From assembly GCA_965248865.1 (NCBI GenBank), contig CBDFKP010000002.1:376610-440609 (forward strand): DNA of 64,000 nucleotides. The letters run 5' to 3'. A program made the position numbers and the translations under genes. Origin of the DNA: Dehalococcoidia bacterium. Lineage in GTDB: Bacteria > Chloroflexota > Dehalococcoidia > Lucifugimonadales > JAPUKM01. Under the pieces are notes generated by a model that did not search any database, was not told the DNA's origin, and was given only the letters and a program-made list of their open reading frames with translations. Of the stretch, positions 2,803 to 57,381 are shown in pieces (within the stretch, counting starts at the first letter, position 1; every line of letters starts with the position of its first letter).

Positions 2803-3729
2803 CTACGCGGGGGTGGCGGGCTCGCCAAAGCCCCCGGTTTGAGACCTGCCCGCGACGCGGTCTGCCGTGGCCTGGTCTATTCCCCTGGGCCACTGCCGCT
2901 TCAGGTCGTCCTTCACGGTGACGGTAAGCTTCCCGAAGTCGGCGATCTCAATCTCCAGCTTGTCGCCGTCCTGGATGGCGCTCAGCCCCTGGTGGTTGGT
3001 GCCGCAGGCGATGACATCGCCCGGGAGCAGTGTCGCGATGGAGCAGGCCCACTCGAAGGAGCGCGGGATGCTGTAGCCCATGTCGTTGGTGTTGTAGTTC
3101 TGGCGCAGGTCGCCGTTGGACCAGAGCTTTACCTGGAGGTTCTGAGGGTCCGGGACCTCGTCTGCGGTGACGATGTATGGCCCAATAGGGCCAAAGGTAT
3201 TCCACGACTTGCCCAGGAGGAAGCTGCTCCGGTGGAGACCCCGCGCCGACGCATCGATGAAGTTGGTGTATCCGAAGACGTGGTCGTACACGTTCTCCGC
3301 CTTCACGTCCGTGGCCTCTTTGCCAACGATCAGACCCAGCTCCGCCTCGTGGTGGAAGATGTTTGCCTTGTCGGGAGGCATCACTATCGTGTCCCCGTCG
3401 CCGATGATGGAGTTGGAGGACTTGAGGAATGCGTTGATGGGCCGTGGCTCCTTCAGCGCACCGTTCTCCAGGTAGTTGGCGGCCATGCAGACGATGTGCA
3501 CGGGTTTCGGCAACGGTGGCCGTAGCCGTACCTGGCCCACCGGTGTGCCGCTGGCGTGGCTGGCGTGCTCCTCGATGTTGCTGCGGTAGCGGTCGAAGTT
3601 CGCGATCAGCCCGCTCATCCAGTCGTGGGGCGTAACGTGGGGGATGTCCCGGATAGCGTCGGAGATGCCCACGACGTTGCCGTCCTTGAGCACCCCGGGA
3701 ATAAAGTCGTTGTAGAAAAGCAGTCTCAT
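2803..3729 (-). CDS. fumarylacetoacetate hydrolase (FAH) family protein
   Basis: FAH-family core (FHHEAELGLIVGK, GDVIACGT). ATG 3727-3729 is preceded by GGAGGGAA. The track ORF extends to 3810. Confidence 0.85.
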   Translation of the reverse strand: MRLLFYNDFIPGVLKDGNVVGISDAIRDIPHVTPHDWMSGLIANFDRYRSNIEEHASHASGTPVGQVRLRPPLPKPVHIVCMAANYLENGALKEPRPINAFLKSSNSIIGDGDTIVMPPDKANIFHHEAELGLIVGKEATDVKAENVYDHVFGYTNFIDASARGLHRSSFLLGKSWNTFGPIGPYIVTADEVPDPQNLQVKLWSNGDLRQNYNTNDMGYSIPRSFEWACSIATLLPGDVIACGTNHQGLSAIQDGDKLEIEIADFGKLTVTVKDDLKRQWPRGIDQATADRVAGRSQTGGFGEPATPA

Positions 3730-3760
3730 GGTTCCCTCCTCATGTTGAATGGACGGTAGC

Positions 3761-4672
3761 CTAGGAAGAGCTTCCGGCTCCTGCCGCCTCTCTGGCTTCC
3801 TTCTGATCATGGGTCTCTCTGCGCCACTCCCGTTTCAGGTCGTCTCTGACGCTGACCCGGAGCCTTCCCATCTCTGGGATCTCCATCTCTATGGCATCGC
3901 CATCCTGCATGGGCCCCAGGCCGCGGTGGTTGGTCCCGCAGGCGAAGATGTCCCCCGGGTCAAGGGTAAGGACGTGGCTGGCCCACGCAAGGCTTGCCGC
4001 AATCGAGTGTGCCATGTCGCTGGTGGGGTAGTCCTGGCGCAGCTCTCCGTTCACCCACAGCTTCACGGGCAGGCTCTGCGGGTCTGATATCTCATCGGCG
4101 GTGACCAGGTAGGGGCCTATGGGGGCGAAGGTGTGCCACGACTTGCCGGGGTAGAAAGAGTCCATGGGGGGAGCGCCCAGTCCCCGGGCCGATCCGTCCA
4201 GGAAGTTGAGGTAGCCGAAGACGTAGTCGTAGGCGTCGTTCTCCCGGATCTCACTGGTGGTCTTGCCAATGACGATCCCAAGCTCTGCCTCGTGCTCGAA
4301 GACGCTGGCCTCGGCGCTGGGGATGACAATGGTATCCCCCTGGCCGATGGTGGAGCTGGGCGACTTCAGGAAGGCGTTGAGGGGGTTCGGCTCCGAAAGG
4401 TGGCCAGATTCCATGTAGTTGCCGGCCATGCAGATCATTTTGCCGGGCCGGGGCACCGGCGCTCGTAGCCGCACCTGGCCCAGGGGCGTACCCTTGGACG
4501 AGCGCGCCGCCTCTTCCAGGCGTCCCTTGTACTGGTCCCACCTCGCTATCAACCCGCTCATCAGGTCGTGTGGGCCCAGGTGCGGTATATCCTGGACCGC
4601 GGCGGAGACATCCACCACGTTTCCATCCTTCACCACCCCCAGGACAAAGTCGTTGAAATAGACAAGCTTCAC
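3761..4672 (-). CDS. fumarylacetoacetate hydrolase (FAH) family protein, tandem paralog
   Basis: Collinear with the preceding protein (MKLVYFNDFVLGVVKDGNVVDV vs MRLLFYNDFIPGVLKDGNVVGI; FEHEAELGIVIGK). GTG start. Confidence 0.85.
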   Translation of the reverse strand: MKLVYFNDFVLGVVKDGNVVDVSAAVQDIPHLGPHDLMSGLIARWDQYKGRLEEAARSSKGTPLGQVRLRAPVPRPGKMICMAGNYMESGHLSEPNPLNAFLKSPSSTIGQGDTIVIPSAEASVFEHEAELGIVIGKTTSEIRENDAYDYVFGYLNFLDGSARGLGAPPMDSFYPGKSWHTFAPIGPYLVTADEISDPQSLPVKLWVNGELRQDYPTSDMAHSIAASLAWASHVLTLDPGDIFACGTNHRGLGPMQDGDAIEMEIPEMGRLRVSVRDDLKREWRRETHDQKEAREAAGAGSSS

Positions 4673-8056: not shown

Positions 8057-9000
<944 letters not shown>

Positions 9001-9004
<4 letters not shown>

Positions 9005-9279
9005 AGGACGGTGATGGTATGGCGGAGAGAGCGACAAAGACCTATGCGATGCCGGTCCAGATCAGCAAGATTGAGGGCGTAGGCTACCGTGCTGAGTGCA
9101 CGATCCTCCAGGGATGCTTTGTGGATGGCGGCACCATGGAGGAGGTGCTGTCGGACATCCAAGAGGCGATTGCGCTTTACATTGAGGCCTCCCGTGAGCG
9201 AAATCTGCCGCTGCCGGAGATCGTGGAAGCGCCAGGTTCGGCGGTGCTGACCATTATCCCTGTGGCTGTGCATGCATGA
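9001..9279 (+). CDS. hicB: HicB-family antitoxin (UPF0150-like)
   Basis: HicB N-domain pattern: YAMPVQISKIEGVGYRAECTILQGCFVDGGTMEEVLSDIQEAIALYIEA...LPLPE. Alternative ATG at 9019. Stop overlaps the next gene's ATG (ATGA). Confidence 0.75.
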
Positions 9280-9469
9280 GGTATGGTGAACTGATTCGGC
9301 TTCTCAGTGATCATGGAGCAGAGATCTATGGCAGGGCCGCAGACATGAAATCTGGGGTGTTCCAGGGACACCGCTTCGGACGCTGGTGCCGAGACATCGG
9401 GGAGAAATAGCCGCCGGCACAGCACAGAGGATCTTGAAAGAGCTAGGAATACAGATGCCACGAGGTTGA
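9276..9469 (+). pseudogene. hicA: HicA-family toxin, apparently frameshifted
   Basis: ATG 9276 gives MRYGELIRLLSDHG and then runs to TAG 9408-9410. The HicA-like remainder (WSRDLWQGRRHEIWGVPGTPLRTLVPRHRGEIAAGTAQRILKELGI, stop 9467-9469) is in another frame. The frames switch near 9312-9325. Confidence 0.65.
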
Positions 9470-9488
9470 ACGCAGCTGTCCAGCCGGA

Positions 9489-9504
9489 GCAATGTTTGAA
9501 TGAA
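9489..9504 (+). repeat. 16-bp direct repeat copy 2, overlapping secA start
   Basis: Identical to 8990-9005. Confidence 0.9.
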
Positions 9505-12175
9505 TACAGGCTACAACATGCTCAAATCCCCCTTGCGGTTCATTACAGACTCAAGCGGGCGGGCCATCAAGAAGTTCCGCCCCATTGTTGAGCGTATCAA
9601 TGCCCTTGAGCCTTCCCTGGAGCGCCTCTCCGACGACGAGCTCAAGGCGAACACCGCGGAGTTCCGGGCCCGTCTTGAGCGGGACGCCGAGCTGGACGAC
9701 CTGCTGGTGGAGGCCTTCGCCCACGTCCGTGAGGCGGCCAAGCGCACCATCGGCCAGCGCCACTACGATGTCCAGCTCATAGGAGGCACCGCGCTTCACC
9801 AGGGGAAGATCGCCGAGATGCAGACGGGAGAGGGAAAGACCCTGGTGGCCACCCTTCCTCTCTACCTGAACGCGCTGGAGGGCAAGGGTGCCCACCTGAT
9901 CACGGTCAACGACTACCTGGCCAAGCGGGACACCCAGTGGATGGGCCCCATTTTTCACCTTCTGGGACTGAGCGTCGGCTGCCTCCAGCATGAGTCGTCG
10001 TATATCTACGATCCGGACACCGAAAACGACAGTCCGAACCTGGTCAACCTGCGACCGGCGACCCGCAGGGAGGCGTACCAGGCGGACGTTACCTATGGGA
10101 CCAACAACGAGTTCGGGTTCGATTACCTGCGGGACAACATGATCGCCGACCCCTCCCAGGTGGCGCAGCAGGAGCTCCACTACGCCATTGTGGATGAGGT
10201 GGACAACATCCTCATCGACGAGGCACGCACCCCGCTGATCATCAGCGGCCCGGCCCAGGAGCCCGCCAAGCTCTACCCCGCCACGGCCCGACTGGCGGCA
10301 CGGCTGGTGGCGGAGGTGGACTACACCGTCGATGAGAAGCTACGCTCCGTCACCCTCACGGAAGAGGGCATCTCCAAGGTAGAGCGGGGGCTCAACCTCG
10401 ATAACCTCTACGCACCGGAGAACGTGGCACTGACCCACTACGTGGACAATGGACTCAAGGCCTCGGTCATCTTCCAGCGGGATAGGGACTACGTGGTCCA
10501 GGACGGTGAGGTGATCATAGTAGACGAGTTCACCGGGCGTCTCATGCCCGGGCGGCGCTACTCTGAGGGGTTGCACCAGGCCATAGAGGCCAAGGAGGGG
10601 CTCCAGGTCCGTCGGGAGAGCATCACCTACGCCACCATTACCTTGCAGAACTACTTCCGCCTCTACCGGAAGCTCTCGGGCATGACCGGCACGGCCGCCA
10701 CCGAGTCAGACGAGTTTTTCAAGATATACAGGTTGGAGGTCGTCGTCATTCCCACCAACAAATCGATGATCCGGGTGAACACCCCTGACCTGGTGTATAA
10801 GAATGAGAGGGCCAAGTACAACGCGGCTGCGCAGGAGATAGCCGAGCTCCATAAGGAGGGTCGCCCCGTGCTGGTGGGCACCACCTCCATCGAGAAGTCC
10901 CAGGAGCTCAGCGACCTCCTCAAACGGCGTGGCATTCCCTGCCAGGTGCTGAACGCAAAGTTTCATGAGAAGGAGGCGTCCGTGGTGGCCCAAGCCGGAC
11001 GTCTGGGTGCGGTGACCGTGGCCACCAGTATGGCCGGTCGTGGTACCGATATCGTCCTGGGAGGGAACCCGGAGAGCCGTGCCCCGGAGGAGTGGCAGGA
11101 GGAGCACGACAAGGTGGTGGCGCTGGGGGGGCTCCACATCCTCGGCACGGAGCGCCACGACGCCCGGCGCATCGATAACCAGCTCCGCGGCAGGGCGGCG
11201 CGCCAGGGCGACCCCGGGAGCGCTCAGTTCTACGTCTCCCTGGAGGACGACCTGATGCGTCGCTTCGGCGGCGATAGGATCAAGAAGATTATGGGCTGGG
11301 CCGGACTGGAGGAGGAGGTTCCCATTCAATCGCGCCTGGTTACCAAGGCCATCGGAAGCTCTCAAGTGAAGGTGGAGGCGGCCAACTTCGACATCCGCAA
11401 GCACCTGGTGGACTACGACGACGTTATCAACGTCCACAGGGACCTGATCTACAGCGAGCGTCGTAAGATCGTGTCCGGAGCCGATCTGAGGTCGAACATT
11501 CAGGAGATGGTCCACCGGGAGATCGATGACCTGGTGGCCGCCCACACCTCCGACCGGGACCGGGACGAGTGGACCCTGGACAGCCTTGTAGCGGAGCTTC
11601 AGTCCATCATGCCCCTGCCCTCGGACCTGGCCGTGGACCGCCTCTACGACCTCACTCCGGAGGAGATGGGTGATGCCATCATCGCCCACGCCGACGCCGT
11701 GTACGAGGAGCGTGAAGGGCTGCTGGGGGCCGAGCAGATGCGGGCGATGGAGCGCGTGGTGATGCTCCGGGTCATGGACTCCCATTGGGTGGAGCACCTG
11801 ACGGCGATGCAGAACCTTCGGGAGGGCATAGGGCTACAGGCCTACGGCCAGCGGGACCCCCTTGTCATGTACCGAAAAGAGGCGCATGAGATGTTCGAGG
11901 AGCTTCTCAGAAGCGTCCAGCATGACATCGTTCACACCCTGTTCCATGTGGTGCCCGCGCCTGGCGGAGCGGCCTCAGCCGCGCCGGCCTCATCAAGTGG
12001 TGCATTGCAGACTGGAAGAGGCGCGGTGGTGGCGGCATCCCGGCCCAGCGTCATGGCGAATGCCGTTGGCAATCGTGGTGCGGCAACGCCTGGCGGTGCC
12101 AAGGTGGGCCGCAACGACCCGTGTCCCTGCGGCAGCGGCAAGAAGTACAAACGGTGCCACGGCGCCGCTGCATAG
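9500..12175 (+). CDS. secA: preprotein translocase ATPase SecA
   Basis: [13 protein letters not shown] and [19 protein letters not shown] motor motifs. C-terminal Zn finger [14 protein letters not shown]. The start could instead be Met7 (9518). Confidence 0.95.
12107..12170 (+). repeat. 64-bp direct repeat copy 1 (secA Zn-finger tail)
   Basis: Repeated at 12670-12733 with one substitution (TGC/TGT Cys codon). Confidence 0.92.
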
Positions 12176-12188
12176 GAGGTTTGTTGTA

Positions 12189-12422
12189 ATGCGATTGTTT
12201 CACCTAATACAGAAGGGCATTCTCCTGGAGTTTCAGGAGGAATCTGAGGGCGGTTACACGGTTACAGTACCATCACTGCCGGGATGCGTGTCGTATGGCG
12301 AAAGCTTCGAACAAGCGATTGAGATGATCAAGGATGCTATGGAAGGATGGCTTGCCGTGGCCGGCGAGGAGGGGGTAGCCATTCCGGAGCCCTTCCGGTC
12401 GGTCAAGATCGCCAGTTTGTGA
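12189..12422 (+). CDS. hicB: HicB-family antitoxin (UPF0150-like)
   Basis: MRLFHLIQKGILLEFQEESEGGYTVTVPSLPGCVSYGESFEQAIEMIKDAMEGWL is typical of the HicB N-domain. Stop overlaps GTG of the next gene. Confidence 0.75.
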   Translation: MRLFHLIQKGILLEFQEESEGGYTVTVPSLPGCVSYGESFEQAIEMIKDAMEGWLAVAGEEGVAIPEPFRSVKIASL

Positions 12423-12662
12423 GAGTTGCTGTGCGCGGCGATCTTCCGACTCTCAGGCCGCAAGCGGTTGCACGTGTTTTGGAACGAGCTGGCTTTACTA
12501 GTGAAGCGGCAAACAGGGGCACACCTTATTCTATTTAAAGAAGGATTGCGAAGGCCGGTTACCGTACCGTTGCATCGGGGAGACCTGCCAAGGGGAACTT
12601 TGAGAGCTATCATTCGGGAAGCTGGTTTAACTGTGGGGGAGTTTCTTGCCTTACTCACATAA
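12419..12662 (+). pseudogene. hicA: HicA-family toxin, apparently frameshifted
   Basis: From GTG 12419 the N-terminus reads VRGDLPTLRPQAVARVLERAGFT and then stops (12536-12538). The rest ([54 protein letters not shown]) is in the adjacent frame. A 1-nt indel near 12497-12501 would restore a canonical HicA. Confidence 0.7.
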
Positions 12663-12669
12663 TGGCCAT

Positions 12670-12733
12670 GGCCGCAACGACCCGTGTCCCTGTGGCAGCG
12701 GCAAGAAGTACAAACGGTGCCACGGCGCCGCTG
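12670..12733 (+). repeat. 64-bp direct repeat copy 2 (orphan secA tail relic)
   Basis: Reads [22 protein letters not shown] and then TGA (12736-12738), with no gene body upstream. Confidence 0.92.
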
Positions 12734-12794
12734 GGTGATGGCTCATGTATCTGACCCAGGGTGAGAACAGCTCTCCAGATGGTGCTCCAGTCGC

Positions 12795-14549
12795 ATGAAC
12801 AACCTCCAGATAGCGGACGTGTTTACCAAGATCGCCGCTCTCACGGACCTGAAGGGCGAGGGCGTCTTCGTTGTGCGCGCCTACCAGCGGGCGGCCCACA
12901 CCATCGAGCGGCTTCCCGTGGAGCTGGAGCAGTACGTGGCCGAGGGGAACAACCTCCGAGAGATCTCCGGCATAGGCGAGGCCATCTCCAAGAAGATTCG
13001 GGAGCTCCTGGAGACCGGGCGGTTGGAGTTCTACGAGAAGCTAAAGGCAGAGTTTCCGGAGGGGCTGCTCCAGCTTTTGGATGTCCCGGGTATAGGGCCC
13101 AAGACCGCCATGCTGGTCTGTACGGAGCTGGGCGTCTCCACCGTGGAGGAGCTTGAGGCCGCCATTGAGGACGGCCGGGTGGCGGCGCTGCCTCGCCTTG
13201 GGGAGAAGGCGGCGGAGAACATCCTGCGCCACATCCGTTCCCCCCGGACCAAGGAGCAGCGCACACCCCTGGGGCGGGCCCTGCCCGTGGCCGAGGCGGT
13301 GATAGAGCATCTGCGCCAGCGAGGTCCGGGGATCAGGCGACTGGAGCCCGCCGGGAGCCTGCGCCGCTACGAGGAGACCGTGGGGGACATCGACCTGGTC
13401 TGTACCGCCGACGACCCCAAGGGGGTCATAGATGCCTTCGTGGCCTTGCCGGAGGTGGCGGATGTCCTGGGCCACGGCTCCACCAAGGGCAGCGTGGTCA
13501 CCAAGGTGGGGCTCCAGGTAGACCTCCGCGTGGTGACGGACGAGGAGTACGGCTCCCTGCTCCAATACTTCACCGGCAGCAAGCAGCACAACGTCATCCT
13601 CAGGGAGTATGCCAATCGCATGGGCCTCTCCCTCAACGAGTACGGTATTACCGATACAAAGACGGGCGAGGTTCAGAAGTACACCGATGAGGAGCCCTTC
13701 TACGCCCGGCTTGGCCTTCCCTACTTCCCGCCGGAGCTGCGCCAGGGCACCACGGAGCTGGATGTGGCCCGCCGCGGCGCTCTCCCTAACCTGGTAGAGA
13801 TGAGCCACATCAACGGCGACCTCCACGTCCACACGGACTGGAGCGACGGTCGTGACGCCATGGAGGCCATGCTGGCCGCCGCCGCGGAGCGGGGCTACCA
13901 GTACCTCGCCATCACGGACCACTCCTCCGGCCGCGGCATCGCCAACGGACTGACCAGGGAGCGGTTGCTCCGCCAGATCGAGCTCGTCCGCTCCCTGGAT
14001 GGGCGGTTCGGCACCATGAAGCTCCTCACCGGCTCGGAGGTGGACATCCGGGCGGACGGCTCCCTGGACTATGCGGAAGAGTTGCTAAGGGAGCTGGATG
14101 TGGTGGTGGCCTCCGTCCACTCCGCCATGGGTCAGGATAGAGAGACAATGACGGAGCGTATCATAAGGGCTATGAGGAACCCCTATGTCACCGTCATCGG
14201 CCACCCCACCACTCGGCTGGTGGGCCAGCGCCCGCCCATTGAGGTGGATATGGAGGCGCTGTTCCAGGCTGCGGCGGAGACCGGCACGGCCATGGAGATC
14301 AACGCCTCACCGGACCGCATGGACCTGCGGGACGTCCACGTGCTGCGGGCCAAGGAGGTGGGCGTTCCCCTGATGATCAACACAGATGCCCACTGGACGG
14401 AGCATTTTGCTAATATGCGCTTCGGTGTGGCGGTGGCCCGCCGGGGCTGGTGTGAGGCCATTCACATTGTCAACACCCGTCCCCTGGACGAGTTTCTCGC
14501 CTTCATACGCCGCAAACGTACTCAACCGAAGGCCACGGTGGTACACTAG
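12795..14549 (+). CDS. polX: DNA polymerase X family protein with C-terminal PHP domain
   Basis: Pol-beta-like HhH N-terminus, nucleotidyltransferase motif GSLRRYEETVGDIDLV and PHP motif GDLHVHTDWSDG. 584 aa. Confidence 0.9.
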   Translation: MNNLQIADVFTKIAALTDLKGEGVFVVRAYQRAAHTIERLPVELEQYVAEGNNLREISGIGEAISKKIRELLETGRLEFYEKLKAEFPEGLLQLLDVPGIGPKTAMLVCTELGVSTVEELEAAIEDGRVAALPRLGEKAAENILRHIRSPRTKEQRTPLGRALPVAEAVIEHLRQRGPGIRRLEPAGSLRRYEETVGDIDLVCTADDPKGVIDAFVALPEVADVLGHGSTKGSVVTKVGLQVDLRVVTDEEYGSLLQYFTGSKQHNVILREYANRMGLSLNEYGITDTKTGEVQKYTDEEPFYARLGLPYFPPELRQGTTELDVARRGALPNLVEMSHINGDLHVHTDWSDGRDAMEAMLAAAAERGYQYLAITDHSSGRGIANGLTRERLLRQIELVRSLDGRFGTMKLLTGSEVDIRADGSLDYAEELLRELDVVVASVHSAMGQDRETMTERIIRAMRNPYVTVIGHPTTRLVGQRPPIEVDMEALFQAAAETGTAMEINASPDRMDLRDVHVLRAKEVGVPLMINTDAHWTEHFANMRFGVAVARRGWCEAIHIVNTRPLDEFLAFIRRKRTQPKATVVH

Positions 14550-27086: not shown

Positions 27087-27136
27087 AGTGCCGTCGGAAA
27101 CCTTTCGCGTACGGATCGTGCGCGGGCATTATACCA

Positions 27137-27248
27137 CCTTTGGCTATCCCTGGGTTTGGAGGTCCCGTTCGCTAAGATTGAAGGGCCCGTTCGTGGTGAG
27201 CTCCGATTGCATCGAGAGTCTCGACAGAGTCGGACTTGCCGAACTATC
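27137..27248 (+). repeat. intergenic repeat element, copy 1
   Basis: Shares CCTTTGGCTAT.CCTGGGTT.GGA.GTCCC ... GGCCCGTTCGTGGTGAGC ... CTTGCCGAACT.TC with 27849-27941. Internal palindrome CGAGAGTCTCG. Confidence 0.75.
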
Positions 27249-27399: not shown

Positions 27400-27732
27400 A
27401 TGAAAAAGTTTGTCGTAATCTATCACGCACCAGCAGGTTGGGAAGCAACGGAAGGTGCTAGCCCAGAAGATATGAAGAAGGGTATGGATTTATGGATGGC
27501 ATGGGCGGCAAAGTGCGGCGATGGTCTAGTCGACTTTGGCACCCCGCTTAGTGGCGGCCAAAAACTGAGCAAGTCAGGTAGCTCGTCAAGCGATAGTGGG
27601 GTGGTCGGTTACTCGATCTTGCAAGTGGAGGATATGGAGGGAGCGAAAGCACTGCTCCAGGGGCATCCCCACCTTGAGTGGGGGGCCGGCTGCGAAATAG
27701 AAGTTCACGAATCTATGCCGCCGCCAATGTAA
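27400..27732 (+). CDS. hypothetical protein, possibly YCII-like dimeric alpha/beta-barrel family
   Basis: 110 aa, with GGAGG upstream of the ATG. The pattern VVIYHAP...VVGYSILQVEDMEGAKALLQGHPHL...CEIEVHE resembles YciI-like proteins. Visibly AT-richer than its flanks. Confidence 0.5.
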   Translation: MKKFVVIYHAPAGWEATEGASPEDMKKGMDLWMAWAAKCGDGLVDFGTPLSGGQKLSKSGSSSSDSGVVGYSILQVEDMEGAKALLQGHPHLEWGAGCEIEVHESMPPPM

Positions 27733-27848
27733 ATTTGGCCGTTGATTTCTTGCTTTCAATGGATGAGGTCACCGTTGGTCTTGGAAAAGCGAGGGGGTCT
27801 CCTCCACCGACCTCAGCCTGTCTGATATGGTAGGCTCCTAATTCATTA

Positions 27849-27941
27849 CCTTTGGCTATACCTGGGTTGGAAGTCCCTGCTCTCTAGGTTTATAGGCCCC
27901 GTTCGTGGTGAGCCTGCCTGTAGTGAGCTTGCCGAACTGTC
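27849..27941 (+). repeat. intergenic repeat element, copy 2
   Basis: See 27137-27248. Same orientation, with a different internal segment. Confidence 0.75.
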
Positions 27942-28087
27942 GGACCATGAGCGGGGCAAGCCGGACATACCACGCCCACCCTGGGCAAGCCTATGGAGGC
28001 TTGCTCACTCCGGTCAGAAGTCGTTTCGATGCCCGCTTGCAGGCCCGGCCTGCCATGTTTATCAAAGTATGGTATAATACTTATGAA

Positions 28088-28342
28088 ATGGCAACTCGAG
28101 AAATCAAGACAACAATTGGGGAGGGTGGCAGGCTCGTAATTCCTGCCGAGTACCGCAAGGCGCTGGGCCTCAAACCTGGCGATGATGTTGTCCTGGTCAT
28201 GGAGGAGGGAGAGGTCCGGCTGCTGACTCCCCAGCGGGCGGTGAAGCGAGCCCAGGCTTTGGTGCGCCGCTACGTCCCGCAGGGGCGATCCCTGGCCGAG
28301 GAGCTTCTGCGCGAGCGTCGTGAAGAGACGGACCGTGGTTGA
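28088..28342 (+). CDS. vapB: AbrB/MazE/SpoVT-family antitoxin (VapB-type)
   Basis: SpoVT/AbrB loop: IGEGGRLVIPAEYRKALGLKPGDDVVLVMEEGEVRL. Overlaps the downstream PIN gene. Confidence 0.8.
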   Translation: MATREIKTTIGEGGRLVIPAEYRKALGLKPGDDVVLVMEEGEVRLLTPQRAVKRAQALVRRYVPQGRSLAEELLRERREETDRG

Positions 28343-55283: not shown

Positions 55284-55440
55284 AAGTTATGGCTACGAGA
55301 CATTCTGCAAAAGCGTGATATTCTAGAAAGAGTAGTCGTTCGAGAGATGCCACCCGTCAAGGGGGGCGCTACTGCGCCCTCAAGTTGGCCTCATTAGGAT
55401 GAATTGGCAATGGAGGAGAAATACTAATTCGGAGGTAGGC

Positions 55441-55500
55441 ATGGCGAGCCCAATCGTCCATTTCGAGATAGCATCCAGGGAGACTAGGAAGGTCCAGACC
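55441..55500 (+). pseudogene. 5' relic of a VOC-family paralog
   Basis: RBS plus MASPIVHFEIASRETRKVQ parallels 56998-57070 (MSNPVVHFEIASKDTGKVR). Similarity is then lost. Confidence 0.5.
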
Positions 55501-56964: not shown

Positions 56965-57012
56965 TCCCCCCTACAGGGCGGAAGACAGAACATTACCAAT
57001 TAGGAGGTTTAC

Positions 57013-57381
57013 ATGTCGAATCCAGTTGTTCATTTTGAGATAGCATCCAAGGACACCGGCAAGGTCCGGGACTTCTATTCCAAGCTCTTCGGCTGGTCCA
57101 TCGACGCCGACAATCCCATGAACTATGGTGTGGCCAGCACCAAAGAAGGCGAGCTCGGCATTGACGGCGGTTTGTACCAAACTGAGGACGCTAACGACCA
57201 GCCAGGTGTGCGCCTGTACGCCCAGGTTGACGATGCTCAAGCCTTTCTTGAGATGGCCGCGTCCTTGGGCGGCACTGTAGTAGGAGAGGCCCAGGAGGTG
57301 CCCGGCCAAGGCATCAAAGTGGGTCAGTTCCTCGATCCGGAGGGTAATATCTTCGGCGTCATCCAAACGTTGCAAGGCTAG
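57013..57381 (+). CDS. VOC (glyoxalase) family protein
   Basis: VVHFEIASKDTGKVRDFYSKLFGW... and LDPEGNIFGVIQ. Confidence 0.8.
   Translation: MSNPVVHFEIASKDTGKVRDFYSKLFGWSIDADNPMNYGVASTKEGELGIDGGLYQTEDANDQPGVRLYAQVDDAQAFLEMAASLGGTVVGEAQEVPGQGIKVGQFLDPEGNIFGVIQTLQG

Follow-up and report, generated by a model that had tools for sequence, protein, structure and literature searches.

The subject of this report is a hicBA toxin-antitoxin cassette in a Dehalococcoidia bacterium of the Chloroflexota, located directly behind secA in a stretch of 64,000 nucleotides (nt) that we call the window (NCBI GenBank assembly GCA_965248865.1, contig CBDFKP010000002.1, positions 376,610 to 440,609 of the forward strand). 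By comparing this site with related loci we found that hicBA genes have gone in at the stop codon of housekeeping genes with the same orientation, each of which had its last 20-71 nt duplicated, and that this has happened at three genes, namely secA, prs and comEC. The reading we favor, with a probability of roughly 0.55, is that a promoter-less hicBA pair was inserted long ago at the end of secA with a long target duplication made by the host, that the two copies of the duplicated tail were later homogenized, and that insertions of the same kind recurred behind prs and comEC. Two aspects seem most worth following, i.e. the recurrence at conserved gene ends, and the long-term homogenization of a stranded 64-nt gene tail.

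The cassette behind secA

The locus is laid out as follows (loci retrieved from other assemblies are cited by L numbers):

9500-12175, + strand: secA (Pfam SecA_DEAD, SecA_PP_bind, P-loop_SecA, SecA_SW, SEC-C)
12107-12170, + strand: upstream repeat copy, 64 nt, SEC-C zinc-finger tail, the functional 3' end of secA
12171-12188, + strand: left junction, in which GCA TAG completes secA (final codon and stop) and GGAGG is the ribosome-binding site
12189-12422, + strand: hicB2, antitoxin, 77 amino acids (aa) (Pfam HicB_lk_antitox, 8.7e-12)
12419-12662, + strand: hicA2, predicted toxin pseudogene, whose GTG start overlaps the hicB stop (GTGA)
12663-12669, + strand: right junction, 7 nt separating the hicA stop from the tail copy
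12670-12738, + strand: downstream repeat copy with its own last codon and stop (GGG TGA, ...HGAAG*)
12795-14549, + strand: polX, family X DNA polymerase with PHP domain (Pfam; synteny in L003-L006, L013, L081, L082)

The 64 nt at 12107-12170 recur at 12670-12733 as a direct repeat with 63 of 64 positions identical and a start-to-start distance of 563 nt, and the single mismatch (C12130 versus T12693) falls on the third base of a Cys codon (TGC/TGT), where it is synonymous. When the 250 nt upstream of hicB were aligned with the 1.1 kb downstream, this repeat scored 61.5, compared with a maximum of 13 in the 60 shuffles that served as chance control. The upstream copy extends into GCA TAG (...HGAAA*, secA stop at 12173-12175), and GGAGG lies directly past this stop, 9 nt 5' of the hicB ATG, in a junction that resembles that of the related locus L097 (CGTAGGAGA). 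The downstream copy has no gene body and reads to its stop at 12736-12738, followed by a spacer of 56 nt and then polX. An earlier note on this DNA, made from the sequence alone, had described the duplicated secA tail with its one synonymous TGC/TGT change and 563 spacing, as well as a body-less downstream copy ending in its own stop, and the alignment confirms both. It had also placed hicB and hicA between the copies, which is right for the location and for hicB, while hicA turned out not to be intact. The insert between the secA tails is 499 nt long and contains hicB and hicA only, with 18 nt before hicB and 7 nt after hicA, so that the space from repeat to repeat is nearly filled. At the hicA stop/tail junction we also noted a tandem hexamer (ATGGCC-ATGGCC, 12662-12673), of which L097 is one unit short, and which may have arisen by slippage or be left over from the joining of the ends. 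Since relatives begin MLK..., secA itself probably starts at the ATG at 9518 (MLKS...) and not at 9500.

HicB2 consists of the N-terminal HicB domain only. The PDB HicB entries 6g1c and 6g1n match residues 20-61 only, the match to the 142-aa HicB of 6g1n is confined to its N-terminal domain (residues 13-53), and no C-terminal DNA-binding domain of ribbon-helix-helix (RHH) or helix-turn-helix (HTH) type was found in the Pfam and PDB comparisons. Its 236 homologues come mainly from Dehalococcoidia metagenome-assembled genomes (MAGs); no second record of the exact protein was found, and the next closest HicB (P0002) is 78% identical. In hicA2, a three-way alignment with the intact hicA genes of L097 and L096 places a 1-nt insertion near 12497-12499 that shifts the frame. 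Uncorrected, the open reading frame (ORF) covers HicA profile positions 15-58 only, and after frame correction it covers HicA_toxin positions 4-58 of 58 (1.2e-17).

A parallel cassette behind prs

A second hicB-hicA pair, bracketed by a shorter repeat, occupies the junction between prs and secA:

8986-9005, + strand: upstream copy of the 20-nt repeat, prs 3' end, including the prs stop TGA at 9002-9004
9019-9279, + strand: hicB1, 86 aa (weak Pfam HicB match of 3.9e-5, below the Pfam cut-off)
9276-9468, + strand: hicA1, predicted toxin pseudogene, 1-nt deletion near 9330-9332
9485-9504, + strand: downstream copy of the prs-tail repeat, immediately 5' of secA

The two 20-nt copies are identical at 19 of 20 positions with a spacing of 499, and their alignment scored 17.5 versus a shuffle maximum of 12, in agreement with the earlier claim that the architecture at prs is the same. 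The same note had called the two HicB proteins clearly different, and indeed HicB1 and HicB2 share only 26% identity. HicB1 homologues are 86 aa long and 62-98% identical, which points to ATG 9019 as the start, so ATG 9001 is probably not used. No Pfam match was obtained for hicA1 as it stands, and after frame correction it matches HicA_toxin positions 3-58 of 58 (3.4e-11). Two independent metagenome assemblies that are ~99% identical to the window (L125, L126) carry the prs repeat and the hicA1 frameshift base for base, and the frameshift is therefore a real mutation.

Judged by these alignments, hicA1 and hicA2 are both frameshift pseudogenes with intact hicB partners, so the window appears to hold no working toxin-antitoxin pair. 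The two lesions lie within a few codons of the same protein position and are of opposite kinds (1-nt deletion versus 1-nt insertion). Programmed frameshifting was considered and rejected, because the two genes need opposite corrections and their orthologues are intact in a single frame. The G+C content of both cassettes is 0.535-0.585 compared with 0.60-0.68 in the flanks, which fits a foreign origin. For the secA cassette the values are 0.535-0.575, with 0.62-0.67 on either side.

The prs-secA site is empty in L121. In the genome to which L096 belongs, the prs-secA gap (L122, 5847-7315) holds a HicB1-like gene (114 aa), a 164-aa ORF and an NYN-domain gene, around which no flanking repeat was found. 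In that genome, as in the window, secA is therefore occupied at both junctions.

Empty sites and cassette-bearing relatives

The gene order ECH-prs-secA-polX-orf309 is conserved in L003, L004, L005, L006, L013, L081 and L082, and at prs-secA-polX these seven loci have no hic genes and one secA tail each. Because relatives keep this order without hic genes, both cassettes in the window are insertions into a conserved core operon. In cassette-free relatives the secA-polX gap measures 6-220 nt (6 nt in L004), and it is larger in L081 and L082, where 1.5 kb of other genes lie in the junction; the secA-polX junction is thus variable in general. In L084 (473-1283; PolX 61% identical) the junction holds an HTH antitoxin and a PIN toxin without a flanking repeat, and the junction appears from such sequences to be a recurrent landing place for toxin-antitoxin modules. 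No close relative of the window was found in the collections, where the best SecA reached 61% (genome contigs) and PolX ~64-71% over fragments (metagenome contigs).

Among 85 secA loci with a SEC-C tail, a second tail was found only in L097/L121, two loci of one Dehalococcoidia MAG (GCA_036447195.1), and it is accompanied there by the cassette; no relative was found that carries the duplicated tail without hicBA, a situation that, had it been seen, would by the earlier note's own criterion have spoken against its idea. The gene order in this MAG is ECH, prs, secA, hicB, intact hicA, second SEC-C tail and F420H2_quin_red, the last of which replaces polX downstream of the tail copy. The L097 repeat is 71 nt long (70/71 identical), its left boundary is identical to that of the window (GGCCGCAAC), and a single nucleotide separates the hicA stop from the tail copy. 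Two further lineages have hicB behind secA without any flanking repeat: in L094-L096/L122, hicB overlaps the secA stop and an intact hicA was missed by the gene caller, and in L127-L129 hicA has been deleted.

Behind comEC, L098 and L100 carry hicB and hicA and, after them, the final ~38 nt of comEC a second time (38 nt at 84% identity in L098, with 3 nt between hicA and the repeat; 27 nt in L100), and in L099 a deletion of ~270 nt has removed most of the comEC tail copy and left a remnant only. The architecture is thus recurrent, as the earlier note had suspected, being found behind secA (window, L097), prs (window, L125, L126) and comEC (L098, L100). Intact orthologous hicBA pairs are present in L097, L096 and L098. 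A control screen of 900 long-ORF ends in all retrieved DNA gave no other high-identity repeat of at least 30 nt reaching a real stop codon, and a 19/20 match in L030 was discarded since its frame was spurious.

Several observations were made alongside. In an unrelated bacterium (L021), the last 92 nt of a 331-aa gene recur 495 nt downstream with ~80% identity (1271-1362 and 1766-1857), which may be another 3'-end duplication around a small insert. L113/L114 contain a tandem array of four hic genes at 1627-2734 (hicB 84 aa, hicA 78 aa, hicB 72 aa, hicB 77 aa), upstream of the same Lactamase_B/ODP-CinA genes that follow comEC-hicBA in L098. The 70-nt spacer between comEC and hicB in L098 (2430-2500) has a good sigma-70-like promoter by eye (TTGATA, 18 nt, TATACT), and comEC-linked cassettes may therefore own a promoter, unlike those linked to secA.

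Age of the insertion and homogenization of the tails

In a neighbor-joining tree of the C-terminal third of SecA, a single clade, ((L096, L127), (L097, window)), unites the four lineages that have hicB behind secA, and the repeat-bearing window and L097 are sisters in it. Between these two, nucleotide identity is 69.7% in the secA body, 73.5% in hicB and 67.1% in hicA, and their SecA proteins are 71% identical. Given one SecA clade and a cassette as diverged as secA, the sequences argue that the secA insertion is old and vertically inherited, not recent. In all four carriers the working secA ends in AAA*. Either the repeat is as old as the insertion and has disappeared from the L096/L127 branch, a loss made feasible by the deletion seen in L099 at comEC, or it arose in the ancestor of the window and L097.

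In the window the ancestral neighbor polX is still in place, and the downstream copy has an in-frame stop and a spacer of its own, so that it has the look of the original secA end left stranded by the insert. The upstream copies of the window and L097 agree at 90.6% of positions and their downstream copies at 85.9%, while within each genome the two copies differ by one base (63/64 and 70/71), and no derived state common to both downstream copies was found. A free-drifting fragment could not have stayed identical while neighboring synonymous sites neared saturation, so by this pattern the tail copies must have been homogenized, preferably by gene conversion or else by repeated excision and re-integration. 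As the insertion is inherited, near-identity of the copies reflects concerted evolution and is no evidence of a recent crossover. The earlier note's idea of a recurrent mechanism, for which it named a single crossover as one option, is upheld in that the architecture recurs. The secA event is not a fresh one, because it is shared by descent with L097. At comEC, alignment shows nearly identical cassettes in L098, L099 and L100, and the last ~13 nt of the comEC tail in L098 are of the downstream-copy type (GGTGGAGAGGTA), with quite different tails in L100 and L099; these cases support an exchange between copies.

Searches for mobility genes, promoters and RNA

Within ~10 kb of the cassette there are only housekeeping genes (asd, dapA, purA, ECH, prs, secA, polX, MFS, valS), and no integrase, recombinase or transposase was found within that distance in the window, nor in L097/L121, L098 or L122. 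The cassette ends have no inverted repeats, the locus has no tRNA genes or Rfam matches, and the secA, prs and comEC targets have no core sequence in common, with repeat lengths of 20, 38 and 64-71 nt. No promoter-like or terminator-like site bearing on the secA cassette was found with an Escherichia coli-type consensus, which may not fit Chloroflexota. A transposon, insertion sequence (IS) or miniature inverted-repeat transposable element (MITE) was rejected in view of the missing terminal inverted repeats and of target duplications that are not of fixed short length, and an integron cassette was rejected since no attC-type inverted repeat was reported in the 7 nt (window) or 1 nt (L097) past the hicA stop. 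Taken together, the lack of a recombinase, of inverted repeats and of a shared core, the nearly filled space between the repeats and their varying lengths disfavor an integrase relic, an integron cassette and a transposon alike.

Elsewhere in the window, a 66-nt direct repeat (27136-27201 and 27848-27913, 80% identical, 712 nt apart) surrounds a 110-aa ORF (27400-27732), and its second copy lies just 5' of an AbrB/SpoVT-like antitoxin-type ORF (27905-28342). More diverged repeats (74-77% identical; 55422-55495 and 56994-57067, 3078-3554 and 4012-4497) look like starts or bodies of tandem paralogous genes, e.g. two FAA-hydrolase genes at 2803-4672.

Proposed history and alternatives

Under the history we favor, a promoter-less hicB-hicA pair would have entered the secA-polX junction in an ancestor of a Dehalococcoidia-like Chloroflexota clade, and the insertion would have duplicated the last ~64-71 nt of secA, i.e. 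an "insertion with long target duplication". We infer that host break repair or illegitimate recombination made the duplication without a transposase or integrase, with staggered-break fill-in, template switching and one-sided homology-assisted joining as candidate routes; an RNase toxin and its inhibitor are all that the cargo encodes, so the reaction would not be element-encoded. The upstream copy would have stayed with secA, for which the left edge of the cassette supplied a new last codon, stop and ribosome-binding site, and the downstream copy would be the original tail, stranded together with its stop and the former spacer to polX. The near-identity within each genome is most likely due to gene conversion, with the selected secA tail as donor, and the repeat would have been lost wherever the downstream copy was deleted or was no longer converted. 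The cassette is probably transcribed by read-through from secA, since HicB2 has no autoregulatory DNA-binding domain, and the co-orientation and the GGAGG after the new secA stop fit this as well. Independent events of the same kind would have occurred behind prs and comEC, and both toxins of the window would have been inactivated by frameshifts later on. In these compact genomes, with intergenic gaps of 6-50 nt, an insertion may owe its survival to a duplication that restores the end of the gene.

A number of points weigh against this history. The right boundaries are unlike, as the repeat stops before the last codon in the window (64 nt) and includes the stop plus GA in L097 (71 nt), a mismatch that needs an extra event in one lineage. 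Among the ~8 distinct contexts of hicB insertion that were examined, only ~3 have a flanking repeat, and that at prs is only 20 nt long. The nearest SecA is 71% identical and the empty sites come from distant genomes (SecA 52-71% identical), which do not fix the timing of the duplication relative to the insertion. The repeat-free L096 and L127 may never have had the repeat, which would then have arisen later, in the ancestor of the window and L097. Gene conversion is read from the sequence pattern, which cycles of excision and re-integration would produce equally, and the consensus behind the promoter scan, being of E. coli type, may be inapplicable here.

Such cycles belong to a Campbell-type scheme, which we regard as possible but doubtful, and in which a 563-bp circle (one tail plus hicBA) would integrate by a single homologous crossover in the SEC-C tail and could re-excise, with repeated cycles or transfer between cells keeping the copies identical. 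The crossover would yield exactly the structure seen, with cassette-borne sequence after the upstream copy (CATAGGAGG, like CGTAGGAGA in L097) and resident sequence after the downstream copy (GGTGA...polX); the repeats are longer than the usual minimum for homologous recombination, the tail is 83-91% identical in nucleotides across the clade, the window and L097 share tail-hicBA-tail before different genes (polX versus F420H2_quin_red), and a comparable cycle of invasion, amplification and release has been proposed for restriction-modification units with long repeats (PMC2853133). However, a circle with the right tail can come only from a genome already carrying the cassette behind the same gene, so that the first arrival at secA, prs and comEC is left unexplained; moreover, cassette divergence tracks SecA and the carriers form one clade, as fits vertical descent, and at 20 nt the prs repeat does not exceed the length usually needed for a RecA-mediated crossover. 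As a circle gives the same product, it could still explain maintenance of the cassette or its spread among relatives. A bolder version, to which we give a small chance, makes tail-hicBA-tail a minimal mobile unit that is moved, or lost and regained, purely by host homologous recombination, the tail being its working part and not a scar. If true, conserved 3' ends such as the SEC-C tail of secA and the ends of prs and comEC would be portable landing pads whatever lies downstream, and toxin-antitoxin modules would have a recombinase-free route of spread.

Gene 3' ends are frequent targets of integrative elements, which bring a surrogate 3' end with them and leave behind direct repeats of 15-60 nt, and toxin-antitoxin modules commonly stabilize such elements. 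The repeats could on these grounds be the attL and attR of a larger site-specific element of which hicBA is the surviving addictive part, as in cis-mobilizable (CIME-like) relics, but we find this very unlikely, given the absence of integrase and mobility genes described above, the three targets with no common core and different repeat lengths (20, 38 and 64-71 nt), and the need for deletions to have stopped at the att borders in three separate cases. This site-specific integrative class is also discussed in PMC2853133. It is unlikely, too, that the downstream tail is retained for use, whether translated into a SEC-C peptide, acting on polX or hicA as RNA or as a regulatory sequence, or serving as an excision handle. 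The copy is in frame and free of indels in two deeply diverged genomes, an in-frame TTG with a GGAG-type motif 4 nt upstream occurs in both (window 12646, L097 2942), the 6-nt indel between window and L097 keeps the TTG frame, and the gene caller called a 28-aa SEC-C ORF in L097; yet both the TTG and the GGAG are part of the conserved coding sequence of hicA, of which they may be by-products, and identity at synonymous sites requires gene conversion anyway. Besides, the substitutions in the comEC tail copy of L098 (K>E, W>R, V>G) are non-conservative and the copy looks neutral, L096 and L127 manage without a copy, and no Rfam match or terminator was found. An assembly artefact, i.e. a mis-joined or expanded repeat, which the earlier note had raised as a caveat, is hardly credible. 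The exact secA locus is known from a single assembly and the exact HicB2 is on no other record, but a single base distinguishes the copies, each has unique flanks unlike those of the other, an independent MAG (L097/L121) shows the same layout, the prs cassette is reproduced base for base in two other metagenome assemblies, and the comEC case is found in two assemblies (L098, L100). These independent assemblies exclude the artefact for practical purposes.

Significance and comparison with known systems

The movement of chromosomal toxin-antitoxin modules outside plasmids, phages, integrons and transposons is still poorly understood. Here, a hicBA family has left the same scar, a duplicated 3' end of the upstream gene, at three housekeeping genes. 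The locus is also a clean case of a non-coding 64-nt piece of a gene that has stayed identical to the sequence it came from over a deep evolutionary split. All genomes could be screened for so simple a pattern, which makes toxin-antitoxin mobility directly testable.

The module resembles type II HicAB systems (PF07927 HicA_toxin, PF15919 HicB_lk_antitox; 6g26, 4p78, 1whz) in having both domains encoded by adjacent, translationally coupled genes (GTGA). It differs from them in that HicB2 of the window is the 77-aa N-terminal domain only, with no RHH or HTH part, and in that the antitoxin gene comes first and both toxin genes of the window are frameshifted. With integrative elements and their cis-mobilizable relics, whose att-site duplications lie at the ends of tRNA, tmRNA or protein genes, it shares the repetition of a target gene 3' end on both sides with the gene left intact, whereas the hicBA insert is only ~500 bp, all of it hicBA, with no recombinase near and no common core. 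Like the toxin-antitoxin cassettes of Vibrio superintegrons, the secA cassette is small, promoter-less, co-oriented and probably expressed from upstream; unlike integron cassettes, it has no attC-like inverted repeat, integrase or attI, and its flanks are copies of a host gene.

A full-text literature search found no report of flanking duplications for hicBA or other type II toxin-antitoxin pairs, although such a search is not proof of absence. The novelty claimed for hicBA in the earlier note stands to that extent, and is qualified by a close analogue described for restriction-modification genes, the insertion with long target duplication (Furuta, Abe & Kobayashi 2010, PMC2853133; reviewed in PMC3874152), whose first source is given in these two articles as Nobusato et al. 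2000, Gene 259:99. Such insertions were found by genome comparison in Helicobacter, Haemophilus, Neisseria and others, without mobile-element genes (PMC2853133, PMC3874152). Of the features used there, repeats of more than 30 bp (PMC2853133) are present in the window (64 nt), L097 (71 nt) and L098 (38 nt), the prs repeat of 20 nt being too short. Empty sites with a single copy are seen at secA-polX in L003-L006 and L013 and at prs-secA in L121, in distant relatives and not, as in PMC2853133, within the same species, and the insert, limited there to less than 20 kb without mobile-element genes, is 499 nt here.

The likeness extends to a small addictive gene pair in an otherwise conserved chromosomal site, to direct repeats, tens of bases long, of which the empty sites of relatives have one copy, to the lack of a transposase, an integrase and terminal inverted repeats, with a repeat length that varies from case to case, and to the overlap of some published repeats with the 3' end of a neighboring gene. 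The hicBA insertions differ in their cargo, a type II toxin-antitoxin pair and not a restriction-modification system, in that the one at secA is old and inherited, with copies homogenized over a deep split, instead of a strain polymorphism, and in a repeat that in every case comes from the coding 3' end of the gene upstream, which has the same orientation. The authors of the long-target-duplication work suggested DNA breakage by the restriction enzyme as a possible common cause (PMC2853133), which is inapplicable here because HicA is an RNase. Our results thus extend the pattern from restriction-modification systems to a module whose toxin does not cut DNA, so the cause probably lies in host repair or recombination and not in the cargo.

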